Virus record (IMG/VR): IMGVR_UViG_2627853844_000004 | Length of the DNA stretch: 16,995 nucleotides | Strand: one strand, 5' to 3' | Origin: a virus | Taxonomy: Duplodnaviria > Heunggongvirae > Uroviricota > Caudoviricetes | Shown here: positions 1 through 7,219 of the stretch, in pieces | Layout: every line of letters begins with the position of its first letter | Position numbering within the stretch: position 1 is the stretch's first letter | Made by a program: the position numbers and the translations under genes | Notes under the pieces: model-generated | Seen by the model: only the letters and a program-made list of their open reading frames with translations | Told to the model about the DNA's origin: nothing | Database searches by the model: none

Positions 1-750
1 TCAGTCAATTGTTTTGTTTATTCCATCTGTGACGCCGATTATTTTCTCAAAATAATGAGATGGCGTGACACCATAATAATCTTTAAATGCACATATGAAA
101 TATGAAGTACTGTTATAGCCACATTTCTGGGCTACGACATTGATAGAATAAGAGTTTGAAGTTATGAGTTTTTTTGCATACCTCATCCTAGTATCTCTCA
201 ATATTTCAGTAAATGACGTTCCTTCATCCCTTAATCTTTTTTTTATTAAACTTTCACTCGTATAAATCAATTCCGCAATATCTTTTAAATGCCATTGCCG
301 CTCAATATTAAAACTGATTATTCCAGTAATTTTACAGGTAAATGTATTTATATTTGTTAGTATAAATGAATTTACACTTTCGCGTTTTTTGAACATGGCA
401 AGTAAGGATATACATAGTCTTTCTTTTAACCAAAGGGAGTGTGAGTCTGCTATTTTAATCCCTTCAAACAGAGAAAAAACAAGCGATAATGGAGGTTCCT
501 CTTCAGCAATATAGCCATTCTTATCAAGAGTAAATTTGCCAGGCAGCTCATTATTCACGTCGATAAAAAAGGATAAACATGTTTTCTTATCTATATCAAC
601 AATTCTTAGTTTAGAGGGGCATACTGGTAACTCCCTTCTAATTTTGTCGCTTACAATAAACAATGAATTTTTTTTGAACGAGATAACTCTCCTGTTTATA
701 ATTAAATCAAATGATTGACAGATGAAAACTACGGAGCAAACATAATCCAT
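1..750 (-). CDS. appY: AraC/XylS-family transcriptional activator, complete 249 aa
   Basis: Complete ORF with stop at 1-3. C-terminal half has the paired helix-turn-helix pattern of AraC regulators. N-terminus [16 protein letters not shown] and 249-aa length match my recollection of AppY. Position next to Tfa remnants at the prophage edge fits DLP12. Confidence 0.8.
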
Positions 751-1295
751 CTTGCACCTATCATAAAATTAAAACAAGTTGATAGTAGTCAAATAACAAC
801 CAATTAAATACACAATCATAATCAGGATGATGTGCATTTATATTTTTATACACAAAATTATAGTTTGCAAATTTTAATAAATTTCATTTAAGATTAAATT
901 ATTATATGTATGTTGTTTTTTATTCTAACTTATTTCAAAGTTACATTTTTCAACGCTTACTATGCTTTTTATTAACATAAACTCACTACAACGCACCTGA
1001 AACCTCTTGCTATATATATGTCAACCGTTTGAATTTAAAATAAAAAGAGTATCATTTTTACTTGCATTTCTTATCAAGTCACATTCAACAACAGTAAAAA
1101 AACATTATTAGAACCATTCAATTAACAAAAAACCAACATCCAGCTTGCTTAATTTTTCTTTATTAAACGATATTGAAAATCAATTGATAAAATACATCTA
1201 AACAACCTTTTGGGGCGCAAAAGCATAACATCAAACAAACAAATAACACACCGAAAAAACTCACAATTAATAACCTATGATATACATACTGTTTA
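751..1295 (-). promoter_or_regulatory. Long, very AT-rich 5' leader and promoter region of appY
   Basis: About 545 bp with no convincing ORF on either strand and strongly AT-biased composition by eye (runs of A/T, few G/C). Lies directly upstream of the appY start at 750. Confidence 0.45.
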
Positions 1296-1556
1296 TTATG
1301 GTTGAATAAGCCACTCGATATCTGGTGCTACGGAAGTGTCCACACGGTTTAGCAGCACCCGATACTTTTTTCAGGCTTCCAGCAACGATCTTTCTTCCTC
1401 CGTTGCGATTTCCAGATCTACAGCATCCTGCAGTGGCGCAATATACTCACTGAATTCCTGGATGTAGAACTGTGTGGTGACGGTCTTCCAGCCATTCGGC
1501 TCCTGCTGTATTGAAGCATACCAGGCTATTTCAATATCGCTATGCTGCGGCAGCAT
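1296..1556 (-). pseudogene. tfaX: Tail fibre assembly (Tfa) gene remnant with in-frame TGG->TGA nonsense codon
   Basis: 61-aa ORF (1371-1556) ends ...[23 protein letters not shown], the conserved Tfa C-terminal motif. The stop at 1371-1373 sits where the paralog at 2334-3077 has TGG (W). The frame continues past it as [24 protein letters not shown] to a second stop at 1296-1298. An AAGGGG Shine-Dalgarno precedes the ATG at 1556. Confidence 0.75.
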
Positions 1557-1694
1557 TTAACCCCTTGTAATTCATTGCCATAATTGATTTAATTCACAAA
1601 TAAAACTATAACATGGTGAAATTAATAAAAAAACACAGATGATGGGGCTAGAATTTACACACCACTTACCCTAAAGCTTTATGACTGGTGGGTT

Positions 1695-2279
1695 TTGGGA
1701 GTATCAAATCGGCTTGCATGGGGATGTCCTACAAAGGAACACCTTCTTCCACACTTTCTGGAACATTTAGGTAACAACCATCTGGATATTGGTGTTGGAA
1801 CTGGGTTTTACCTTACTCACGTACCTGAGAGTAGTCTGATATCTTTAATGGATTTGAACGAAGCTAGCCTGAACGCGGCATCTACAAGGGCTGGGGAATC
1901 AAAAATTAAACATAAAATTAGCCATGATGTTTTTGAACCTTATCCCGCGGCGTTACATGGTCAATTTGATTCCATTTCCATGTCTTACCTTCTTCACTGC
2001 CTGCCTGGAAATATATCTACAAAAAGCTGTGTAATACGCAATGCGGCGCAGGCCTTAACTGACGATGGAACTCTATACGGAGCCACAATTCTTGGCGATG
2101 GAGTTGTGCACAATAGCTTCGGTCAAAAACTGATGCGCATTTACAATCAGAAAGGCATCTTTTCAAACACAAAAGATTCCGAAGAAGGCTTAACACATAT
2201 ACTCTCAGAGCATTTCGAGAATGTTAAAACCAAGGTTCAAGGTACTGTAGTAATGTTTTCCGCTTCAGGAAAAAAATAG
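1695..2279 (+). CDS. ybcY: Class I SAM-dependent methyltransferase-like protein; start uncertain, possibly 5'-degraded
   Basis: Translation contains LDIGVGTGFYL, a methyltransferase motif I (glycine-rich SAM-binding loop). The frame is open back to 1629 with no in-frame ATG; the ORF track start at 1695 is TTG. An out-of-frame ATG ORF begins at 1681. Symbol is from recollection of the K-12 DLP12 gene order. Confidence 0.55.
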   Translation: MGVSNRLAWGCPTKEHLLPHFLEHLGNNHLDIGVGTGFYLTHVPESSLISLMDLNEASLNAASTRAGESKIKHKISHDVFEPYPAALHGQFDSISMSYLLHCLPGNISTKSCVIRNAAQALTDDGTLYGATILGDGVVHNSFGQKLMRIYNQKGIFSNTKDSEEGLTHILSEHFENVKTKVQGTVVMFSASGKK

Positions 2280-2333
2280 CATCCAACCGCAGCATGTTCT
2301 TGCTTAAGACGTGCTGCGGCATAATCCCAATGA

Positions 2334-3077
2334 TTACTCCCTGACAGGGTTCGTAGGCCACTCAATATCAGGTGCAGTTGATGTATCAACACGGTTCAGC
2401 AACACCCGATATTTTTTCCAGGCTTCCAGCAATGAGGTTTCTTCCTCCGTTGCGATTTCCAGATCTACAGCATCCTGAAGTGGCGCAATATGCTCACTGG
2501 CTACCTGCATCAGGCTGTTTTTTGTTTCTTCCGCCTCCCGAATCCGGAACAGTTTTTCTGCTTCTGCATCTTTCACCCAGGCTGTACCGTTCCACTTCTG
2601 AAACTCCCCTTCCGGCGATAACCAGGTAACATTTTCCGGTAACGGACCGAGTTCAGAAATAAATAACGCGTCCCCTGACGCTACGTCATAAACCGTTTTA
2701 CCCCGATGATCTTCAACGAGATGCCACGATGACTCATCACTGTTGAAAACAGCCACGAAGCCAGCTGGAATAAGGGTGTTGCGCTGCTTATGCTCTATAA
2801 AGTAGGCATAAACACCCAGCAGCATTTTGGAATAACCGACACGGGCAGACTTCACCACATTCACCTCACGGATGTAGTCGCTGCCCATCGCATTCATGAT
2901 GGCCCGCTGAAAGGGCAGTGTTTCCCAGCGCCCTTCCTGGTATGCGGATTCTTTCGGGAGATAGTAATTAGCATCCGCCCATTCAACGGCGGTCTGTGGC
3001 TCCGGCCTGAACAGTGAGCGAAGCCCGGCGCGGACAAAATGCCGCAGCCTGTTAACCTGACTGTTCGATATATTCAC
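2334..3077 (-). pseudogene. In-frame deletion fusion: terminase large subunit (gpA) N-terminal 103 codons joined to Tfa C-terminal ~144 codons
   Basis: Residues 1-103 ([28 protein letters not shown]...[14 protein letters not shown]) match the lambda gpA N-terminus as I recall it. From residue 104 ([29 protein letters not shown]...[14 protein letters not shown]) it matches the lambda Tfa C-terminus. Junction lies between 2768 and 2769 (minus-strand ...cttatt|ccagctgg...). Corresponds to the K-12 aaaD/tfaD pseudogene pair by recollection. Confidence 0.85.
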
Positions 3078-3502
3078 TCAGCAACCCCGGTATCAGTTCA
3101 TCCAGCGCGGCTGCTTTGTTCATGGCTTTGATGATATCCCGTTTCAGGAAATCAACATGTCGGTTTTCCAGTTCCGGAAAACGCCGCTGCACCGACAGGG
3201 GGATCCCGTCGAGAATACTGGCAATTTCACCTGCGATCCGCGACAGCACGAAAGTACAGAATGCGGTTTCCACCACTTCAGCGGAGTCTCTGGCATTTTT
3301 CAGCTCCTGTGCATCGGCCTGCGCACGCGTAAGTCGATGGCGTTCGTACTCAATAGTCCCTGGCTGGAGATCTGTCTCGCTGGCCTGCAGCAGTTCTTCA
3401 ACCTCCCGGCGCAGCTTTTCGTTCTCAATTTCAGCATCCCTTTCGGCGGTGATGCTGCCAACTTACTGATTTAGTGTATGATGGTGTTTTTGAGGTGCTC
3501 CA

Positions 3503-3778
3503 GTGGCTTCTGTTTCTATCAGCTGTCCCTCCTGTTCAGCTACTGACGGGGTGGTGCGTAACGGCAAAAGCACCGCCGGACATCAGCGCTATCTCTGCTC
3601 TCACTGCCGTAAAACATGGCAACTGCAGTTCACTTACACCGCTTCTCAACCCGGTACGCACCAGAAAATCATTGATATGGCCATGAATGGCGTTGGATGC
3701 CGGGCAACAGCCCGCATTATGGGCGTTGGCCTCAACACGATTTTACGTCACTTAAAAAACTCAGGCCGCAGTCGGTAA
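3503..3778 (+). CDS. insA: IS1 InsA (transposition repressor)
   Basis: 91-aa [43 protein letters not shown]... with zinc-finger-like N-terminus typical of InsA. Confidence 0.95.
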
Positions 3779-4200
3779 CCTCGCGCATACAGCCGGGCAG
3801 TGACGTCATCGTCTGCGCGGAAATGGACGAACAGTGGGGCTATGTCGGGGCTAAATCGCGCCAGCGCTGGCTGTTTTACGCGTATGACAGTCTCCGGAAG
3901 ACGGTTGTTGCGCACGTATTCGGTGAACGCACTATGGCGACGCTGGGGCGTCTTATGAGCCTGCTGTCACCCTTTGACGTGGTGATATGGATGACGGATG
4001 GCTGGCCGCTGTATGAATCCCGCCTGAAGGGAAAGCTGCACGTAATCAGCAAGCGATATACGCAGCGAATTGAGCGGCATAACCTGAATCTGAGGCAGCA
4101 CCTGGCACGGCTGGGACGGAAGTCGCTGTCGTTCTCAAAATCGGTGGAGCTGCATGACAAAGTCATCGGGCATTATCTGAACATAAAACACTATCAATAA
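3697..4200 (+). CDS. insB: IS1 InsB frame (expressed as InsAB' transposase by -1 frameshift)
   Basis: 167-aa ORF in the -1 frame relative to insA. An A6C slippery run (aaaaaac, 3754-3760) lies in the overlap, which is the known IS1 frameshift motif. Confidence 0.9.
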
Positions 4201-4374
4201 GTTGGAGTCATTACCCCTTTCGGCATACCATTTTATGACGGCGGCAGAGTCATAAAGCACCTCATTACCCTTGCCACCGCCTCGCAGAACGGGCATTCCC
4301 TGTTCCTGCCAGTTCTGAATGGTACGGATACTCGCACCGAAAATGTCAGCCAGCTGCTTTTTGTTGACTTCCAT

Positions 4375-4610
4375 TGCACATTCCACGGACAAAAACAGAG
4401 AAAGGAAACGACAGAGGCCAAAAAGCTCGCTTTCAGCACCTGTCGTTTCCTTTCTTTTCAGGGGGTATTTTAAATAAATACATTAAGTTACGACGAAGAA
4501 GAACGGAAACACCTTAAACCGGAAAATTTTCATAAATAGCGAAAACCCGCGAGGTCGCCGCCCCGTAACCTGTCGGATCGCCGGAAAGGACCCACAAAAT
4601 GATAATAATT
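4375..4610 (-). other. Lambda-type cos site (cosQ-cosN-cosB); 12-nt cohesive-end sequence at 4552-4563
   Basis: Minus strand reads ...cgatccgacaggttacg GGGCGGCGACCT cgcgggttttcgctatttatgaaaattttccgg..., matching the lambda right-end/left-end junction and cohesive end as recalled. The region between cosN and the Nu1 start (cosB) is near-identical to lambda. Confidence 0.85.
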
Positions 4611-4762
4611 ATCATCTACATGTCACAACGTGCATCTACGCCATCAAACCACGTCAAATAATCAATTATGACGCAGGTATCGTATTAATTGATCTGCATC
4701 AACTTAACGTAAAAACAACTTCAGACAATACAAATCAGCGACACTGAATACGGGGCAACCTC

Positions 4763-4957
4763 ATGTCAACTAAGAACAGAACCCGCAGAACAACAACCCG
4801 CAACATCCGCTTTCCTAACCAAATGATTGAACAAATTAACATCGCTCTTGAGCAAAAAGGGTCCGGGAATTTCTCAGCCTGGGTCATTGAAGCCTGCCGT
4901 CGGAGGCTAACGTCAGAAAAGAGAGCATATACATCAATTAAAAGTGATGAAGAATGA
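4763..4957 (+). CDS. ylcI: Small prophage protein, 64 aa
   Basis: ORF MSTKNRTRRTTTRNIRFPNQMIEQINIALEQKGSGNFSAWVIEACRRRL... Length and position between the terminase gene and ybcW fit K-12 ylcI by recollection. Function unknown. Confidence 0.55.
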   Translation: MSTKNRTRRTTTRNIRFPNQMIEQINIALEQKGSGNFSAWVIEACRRRLTSEKRAYTSIKSDEE

Positions 4958-5613: not shown

Positions 5614-6024
5614 ATGGCTCAGGTTGCCATTTTTAAAGAAATATTCGATCAAGTGCGAAAAGATTTAAACTGTGAATTGTTTTATTCTGAACTAAAACGT
5701 CACAATGTCTCACATTATATTTACTATCTAGCCACAGATAATATTCACATTGTGTTAGAAAACGATAACACCGTGTTAATAAAAGGACTTAAAAAGGTTG
5801 TAAATGTTAAATTCTCAAGAAATACGCATCTTATAGAAACGTCCTATGATAGGTTGAAATCAAGAGAAATCACATTTCAGCAATACAGGGAAAATCTTGC
5901 TAAAGCAGGAGTTTTCCGATGGATTACAAATATCCACGAACATAAAAGATATTACTATACCTTTGATAATTCATTACTATTTACTGAGAGCATTCAGAAC
6001 ACTACACAAATCTTTCCACGCTAA
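5614..6024 (+). CDS. ybcV: Uncharacterised prophage protein, 136 aa (DUF1398 family by recollection)
   Basis: ORF track gives 177 aa from 5491. The ATG at 5614 ([11 protein letters not shown]...) has a GGAAGG Shine-Dalgarno about 9 nt upstream and gives 136 aa, the length I recall for YbcV. Stop codon taa at 6022-6024 abuts IS5. Confidence 0.65.

Positions 6025-7219
<1,195 letters not shown>

Follow-up and report, generated by a model that had tools for sequence, protein, structure and literature searches.

The aaaD/tfaD relic of the cryptic prophage DLP12 in Escherichia coli K-12, a fusion of terminase gene A and tfa at a deletion joint

The open reading frame (ORF) at 2334..3077 on the minus strand of the window, that is, of the whole 16,995-nt stretch of DNA analyzed, is a known element of Escherichia coli K-12, the aaaD/tfaD relic in its cryptic prophage DLP12. 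Based on its anatomy, its identity with the annotated K-12 locus, an undeleted comparator and the distribution of its joint, we regard it as an aaaD-tfaD fusion that was left by a deletion of about 21 kb in DLP12 and is very probably a functionless pseudogene (probability about 0.88).

The frame joins gene A to tfa at a three-nucleotide microhomology

The ORF listing gives an open frame of 247 codons plus TAA, with a GTG start and no interruption, as the initial annotation had described it from the letters of the window. By ungapped alignment, ORF nt 1-308 were found to equal lambda A nt 1-308 with 0 mismatches, GTG included, while beyond this point lambda A is unrelated to the ORF from nt 309. 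This terminase gene A segment occupies 2770..3077 (minus strand), is 100% identical to lambda 711-1018 and corresponds to the K-12 pseudogene aaaD. The remainder, at 2334..2772 (minus strand), is tfa: nt 147-585 of lambda tfa (orf-194) align without gaps to ORF nt 306-744 with 406/439 identities (92%) and end at the same TAA, so that the native Tfa stop named in the initial annotation is indeed the end of the ORF. The predicted product therefore consists of gpA residues 1-103 joined in frame to Tfa residues 50-194; compared with lambda gpA (641 aa) it shares residues 1-103, and compared with lambda Tfa it keeps residues 50-194, the first 49 having been replaced by the 103 gpA residues. The 5′ end likewise retains the lambda arrangement, since the Nu1-homologue frame terminates at 3052-3054 (...EYIEQSG*) and the A start lies at 3075-3077, which gives the same 26-nt overlap as in lambda (711 vs 736); the proposed native gpA start overlapping the Nu1 stop is thereby confirmed.

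At the level of the surrounding DNA, lambda 1018-341 matched window 2770-3447 at 98.97% and lambda 22608-22119 matched window 2285-2772 at 90.4%, the latter including 2285..2333 (minus strand), which is lambda-homologous DNA directly past the tfa stop (lambda 22558-22608). The A and tfa alignments overlap by 3 nt at window 2770-2772 (ATA on the plus strand, TAT on the gene strand), corresponding to A nt 306-308 and tfa nt 147-149, and no foreign or filler sequence was found at the joint in these alignments to lambda. Because the two alignments overlap and nothing else lies between them, the joint is a clean microhomology joint, and the breakpoint contains none of the unrelated sequence that would have spoken against a simple fusion. 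Identity with A stops at window 2770, and window 2769 (ORF nt 309) is already a tfa base, with codon 103 still encoding Ile as in gpA; thus, the crossover falls within 2770-2772. The breakpoint had initially been placed at 2768/2769, which is 1-4 nt off, and the 309-nt match to A that had been expected holds for nt 1-308 but not for nt 309.

Profile searches gave the same picture of two coding sequences in one frame. A Pfam GpA_ATPase fragment was found at residues 47-102, covering profile positions 3-60 of 247, followed by Caudo_TAP (PF02413) at residues 125-244, covering positions 1-130 of 131 with 153.4 bits vs a cut-off of 22.1, whereas no match to the GpA_nuclease domain was found in the chimera by Pfam. 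As controls, lambda gpA matched the GpA_ATPase profile over positions 3-237 and GpA_nuclease at residues 322-600, and lambda Tfa gave the corresponding full match. The alignments and Pfam matches together bear out the proposal of a chimera between the gpA N-terminus and the Tfa C-terminus. The length of the ORF is explained by its being built of two true coding sequences, whose joining in frame here creates no stop codon. That the joint is in frame at all is a matter of chance alone, a 1-in-3 event; because it fell so, the native GTG of A reads through to the native tfa stop.

The frame is the annotated aaaD/tfaD locus of K-12

The window extends from appY to the integrase of DLP12, and the region under study was 100% identical to many K-12 genomes over 1848-1901 nt. 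Its gene order agrees with NC_000913.3 579000-585000, with nohD upstream and ybcY, tfaX and appY downstream of the ORF. In that record, 581354-581662 is listed as the pseudogene aaaD (b4634), which spans 309 nt beginning with the GTG, and 581534-582097 as the CDS tfaD (b0561, formerly ybcX), whose product is named 'putative tail fiber assembly protein TfaD'. These annotations overlap in one frame between nohD and ybcY. In the window, the tfaD CDS of 187 aa corresponds to 2334..2897 (minus strand) and begins at internal Met61 of the chimeric frame, so that tfaD is itself chimeric. An entry identical to the 187-aa sequence is found in UniProt as TFAD_ECOLI, the 247-aa sequence is likewise deposited in identical form, with names that refer to terminase or Tfa, and the RefSeq pipeline PGAP splits the ORF into two abutting incomplete pseudogenes. 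Within the ORF, the DNA of the window and that of K-12 MG1655 aaaD/tfaD are the same, whereas beside it the window variant differs from MG1655-type DLP12 in having an IS1 in nohD and a loss of 3.4 kb beside an IS5.

The ORF is thus not a discovery, the chimera being already known from genome annotation. What the comparison adds is that a single locus carries three inconsistent descriptions: a pseudogene overlapping a same-frame CDS, two abutting partial pseudogenes in PGAP, and an Rfam 'RNA gene' inside the CDS. Beyond its correct annotation, the ORF matters little. In the literature searched, tfaD/ybcX appears merely as a locus, a list entry or a chip protein: it was the lambda tfa homology target in the study of Poteete et al. 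(PMC545071), where the adjacent 3.5-kb cos-proximal lambda homology was noted as well, a transposon hit without follow-up there (PMC11587861) and an antisense-transcription control (PMC5909445). Full-text literature searches for aaaD (with nohD or prophage), b0561 and b4634 returned nothing relevant.

An undeleted relative at the same locus

On the lambda map, the joint connects 1016-1018 with 22119-22121, and 21,103 bp are lost, from the rest of A through stf and including the first 146 nt of tfa. In our main reading, illegitimate recombination at the 3-nt microhomology TAT joined terminase A nt 308 to tfa nt 147. About 21 kb were thereby removed, namely what remained of A, the genes W, B, C, D, E, FI, FII, Z, U, V, G, T, H, M, L, K, I, J, lom and stf, and 49 codons at the start of tfa.

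The deletion reading was found to be right by comparison with strain 2013C_3277, in which the A-to-tfa module is whole at the same locus. This strain carries, at the matching chromosomal position (bordered on one side by nfrA-ybcH-envY-ompT), a DLP12-like prophage with ybcN, ninE, ybcO, rusA, ylcG, quuD, an intact porin gene, essD, rrrD, rzpD and ylcI, followed by an Nu1 gene (nohD-like). Behind Nu1 lie A at its full length of 1926 nt, W, B, a C gene disrupted by IS66, D, E, all of the tail genes, lom and stf, then tfa, complete at 585 nt, ybcY, which is intact, and a tfaX-like fragment. The tfa of 2013C_3277 differs from the K-12 segment at 9/439 positions (98% identity), and both have the C-terminus PTNPVRE. 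The loss of the structural genes as the origin of the chimera, which had been proposed from the window alone, is hence supported both by the 21,103 bp missing relative to lambda and by an undeleted comparator, and the prophage of 2013C_3277 provides a clean reference for the K-12 deletion.

The joint is confined to the K-12 lineage

A 60-nt probe centered on the joint was searched against 5426 complete E. coli genomes and was found in 360 of them, with 100% identity each time; an assembly artefact is ruled out by this recurrence in complete genomes. All of the 48 sampled joint rows (48/48) were K-12 laboratory strains, K-12 conjugation recipients or O16:H48 (K-12-like) genomes, while about 2000 further genomes have the ybcY-plus-tfa arrangement without the joint. 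The scar is young and lineage-specific, and therefore its intact frame says nothing about selection.

A second joint in other prophages ends at the same base of gene A

In six other complete E. coli genomes (Z1323CEC0012, FORC 064, O157:H16 98-3133, Z1323PEC0012, O2:H16 BA92 and STECUZB006), A nt 1-308 were found to lead directly into TCCAGATTGTCCTGGG..., a stretch of gene I that begins at nt 305 and is out of frame. The remnant segments of this A308-I305 joint lie at 4005-4313 and 3641-4003 of L006, 5005-5313 of L008 and 20151-20459 of L009. They map to att-lambda, flanked by ybhC and bio, within a prophage whose cargo includes nleB2, nleC and nleH and whose Q gene is different. Compared with K-12, gene A is cut at the identical base (nt 308), the next 5 nt (TCCAG) are the same and the Nu1-A DNA is 99.3% identical; unlike in K-12, gene A is joined to the tail assembly gene I, not to tfa, and Nu1 is also 5′-truncated. 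The 8-mer TATTCCAG is present in intact I genes and in many intact tfa alleles, and because it is common to I and tfa, the K-12 and A308-I305 joints share CCCTTAT/TCCAG. That the sister joint is out of frame fits the view that the frame is a matter of chance. The shared endpoint in gene A is not in the annotation and is a new, minor curiosity.

The coincidence raises the question of whether the K-12 joint arose by two deletions and not by one. The A308-I305 deletion could have come first, followed by a loss between TATTCCAG at that joint and TATTCCAG in tfa (nt 147-154), a sequence of events that we rate slightly short of an even chance. In this history, I′, J, lom, stf and the beginning of tfa would have gone with the second deletion. 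In a variant of this history, A308-I305 could be copied between prophages via flanking homology before trimming, and the homology among lambdoid prophages is enough for copying a deletion across. In favor of two steps, the left endpoint coincides with that of K-12 to the base, and TCCAG follows it in both cases; a rough estimate for two independent deletions coinciding by chance, on the same base of a 1926-nt gene plus 5 bases, is ≤1e-4. The occurrence of TATTCCAG in both intact I genes and many intact tfa alleles and the 99.3% identity of the Nu1-A segment of the remnants to K-12 point the same way. On the other hand, A308-I305 sits at another locus (att-lambda) with other cargo and another Q gene, and it was found at the DLP12 locus in no genome among the complete E. 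coli genomes. Moreover, K-12 tfa nt 147-178 equal natural tfa alleles, so that no base need derive from gene I; base A153 of the tfa part, considered as a possible gene I footprint, was rejected since the same 32 nt occur in natural tfa alleles. Descent between the two joints could run in either direction, and a local break hotspot in A may be an alternative. Two independent deletions are unlikely to coincide in this way, and a related origin of both joints is more economical; the two-step history itself stands at about even odds.

The sequence left by two steps would equal that of a direct A308-tfa147 deletion, and the choice changes the history but not what the ORF is, namely a fusion relic. 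The view of the joint as a precise record of the deletion endpoint may be too simple, as A308-I305 uses the same base of gene A. The shared endpoint is a modest hint, open to checking, that the scar of a deletion may be handed from one resident lambdoid prophage to another and trimmed afterwards.

Upstream context of the frame

Over the start codon and the 40 nt before it, the sequence is that of lambda A and includes a weak Shine-Dalgarno-like run, GGGG. Farther upstream the context is broken. The 3′ fragment of nohD, the Nu1 homologue, lies at 3052..3447 (minus strand; Pfam Phage_Nu1 profile 51-164), its stop overlapping the A start by the 26 nt mentioned above, and is followed by an IS1 of 768 bp at 3448..4215 (plus strand), flanked by a 9-bp target duplication, CCTTTCGGC, at 3439-3447 and 4216-4224. 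The IS1 transposase is directed away from the ORF. Beyond it, the 5′ fragment of nohD occupies 4216..4374 (minus strand), with lambda homology continuing to lambda nt 1, the cos end, at window 4563. The upstream cistron is therefore split by IS1, and the late operon farther up is cut by IS5 and a 3.4-kb deletion. Promoter scanning of 1500-4800 found no promoter-like site on the gene strand in the stretch from IS1 to the ORF, and across the scanned interval the number of promoter- and terminator-like sites equals that expected from shuffled sequence. For the same reason, neither a terminator-like hairpin inside the ORF (2681-2668) nor a promoter-like site upstream of nohD (4626-4599) was taken as evidence, the site count being no higher than in the shuffle. 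The start signals, initially described as intact, are so with respect to the start codon and its immediate upstream sequence; they are not with respect to the split nohD, the cut late operon and the lack of a nearby promoter-like site in the scan.

Three further observations were made in this region. Lambda nt 350-1 are kept (98%) at window 4215-4563, so that the DLP12 remnant retains the cos-proximal left end beside the split nohD. The IS1 in nohD is shared, among the genomes listed, only by three MG1655 stocks (CP010438-40), ER3413 and ER2796, and its restriction to these five makes it a marker of the source strain. The IS5 (window about 6021-7219) abuts the ybcV stop, and the 3.4 kb missing compared with MG1655-type DLP12 comprise part of nmpC, essD, rrrD, rzpD and borD; judging from the sequence, this loss looks like an IS5-adjacent deletion.

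What the product keeps and lacks of its two parents

Turning to the product, gpA residues 104-641 are lost, that is, most of the ATPase domain and the whole endonuclease domain. A terminase role is impossible, because the match to the 247-position ATPase profile is reduced to positions 3-60 and the nuclease domain has been lost; compared with the gpA family (PF05876 plus PF20454), the chimera has neither a complete ATPase domain nor an endonuclease domain. The Tfa half reaches the Caudo_TAP profile score and covers the profile fully, but it is not full length, residues 1-49 of 194 in the N-terminal region being missing, and it does not lie directly downstream of a tail-fibre gene, since gene A sequence abuts tfa. 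The partner gene stf, located upstream of tfa in the undeleted 2013C_3277, has been deleted and is absent from the window. Tfa proteins have a variable N-terminal domain that binds the fibre and conserved C-terminal helices that trimerise (PMC9608196), and the C-terminal 65 residues of the Tfa part align with the Mu Tfa structure 5YVQ_B. As predicted from its sequence, the product would thus be Tfa minus its first 49 residues, with no tail fibre left to assemble. The proposed chaperone-like half would keep the conserved C-terminal region and the complete profile, but the first 49 residues and the fibre gene are missing.

We infer that the fusion is functionless and lacks meaningful expression; such a pseudogene would persist only because the deletion is recent and limited to the K-12 lineage. 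Against this stand the intact ORF, the retention of tfaD as a CDS by NCBI, the coverage of the entire Caudo_TAP profile and the retained part of gpA, which is probably the Nu1-binding region of lambda terminase. We also weighed the opposite reading, in which the chimera is expressed and active, its Tfa part aiding or hindering lambdoid tail-fibre assembly or its gpA N-terminus titrating the small terminase subunit as a packaging decoy. In addition to the open frame, the CDS listing and the complete Caudo_TAP profile, this reading could draw on the native start codon kept at the head of the open frame, on the alignment of the C-terminal region with 5YVQ_B and on the listing of tfaD among multi-stress-responsive genes (PMC9501238), which suggests some detectable transcript. 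A recombinant YbcX protein was also included on an E. coli proteome chip (PMC3229523), so that the 187-aa version can be made in vitro. However, an open frame is what one joint in three would give, and the sister A308-I305 joint is out of frame; the K-12 joint is confined to one lineage at 100% identity, which leaves no time for visible selection; and in the window IS1 divides nohD, while IS5 and the deletion interrupt the late operon, with no promoter-like site nearby. Likewise, the 49 missing Tfa residues fall within the fibre-binding N-terminal region (PMC9608196), the Walker B motif of gpA has gone together with the nuclease domain, and no function for tfaD/ybcX is reported in the literature searched. 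An active chimera is thus very improbable. Still less probable is the specific proposal of a chimera that is made in K-12 cells and works on the lambdoid phages that infect them, its 103 gpA residues binding the small terminase subunit as a dominant-negative decoy or its truncated Tfa entering or poisoning side-tail-fibre assembly; if true, an accidental deletion scar would be a small prophage-encoded interference factor.

An Rfam match inside the tfa part

The Tfa-derived part also contains a full-length match to the Rfam family RF02111 ('IS009') at 2377-2575 (minus strand, sense), with 227.8 bits vs a gathering threshold of 117. In tfaX, a weaker copy of 110 bits, below this threshold, lies at 1330-1533 (minus strand). 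On the strength of these two matches the functional unit here might be taken to be an RNA and not a protein, which is highly improbable, because the match falls on the most conserved coding part of tfa genes, the consensus structure has few pairs with about half of the model unpaired, and the scan of 1500-4800 gave no bracketing terminator- or promoter-like sites in excess of chance. IS009 was set aside by Neuhaus et al. among RNAs expected to carry ribosome footprints (PMC5331693). RF02111 appears to model conserved tfa coding sequence and not a separate RNA gene.

Neighboring genes downstream of the tfa stop

Immediately downstream, PGAP predicts a 45-aa 'nucleocapsid protein' (WP_071592174.1) at 2224-2361 (minus strand). 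It runs, in a different frame, over the stop of tfaD and the last part of ybcY; both the ORF and its name look spurious. The ybcY methyltransferase gene (window 1614-2280, plus strand) is frameshifted in K-12, whereas 2013C_3277 has an intact 669-nt gene (L010 19912-20580). The neighboring tfaX is a second tfa 3′ fragment in the same orientation as tfaD, with 1307-1463 being 85% identical to 2354-2510 of tfaD. As tfaX and tfaD share this orientation, ybcY lies between two direct tfa repeats, an arrangement that is also present in the undeleted relative.
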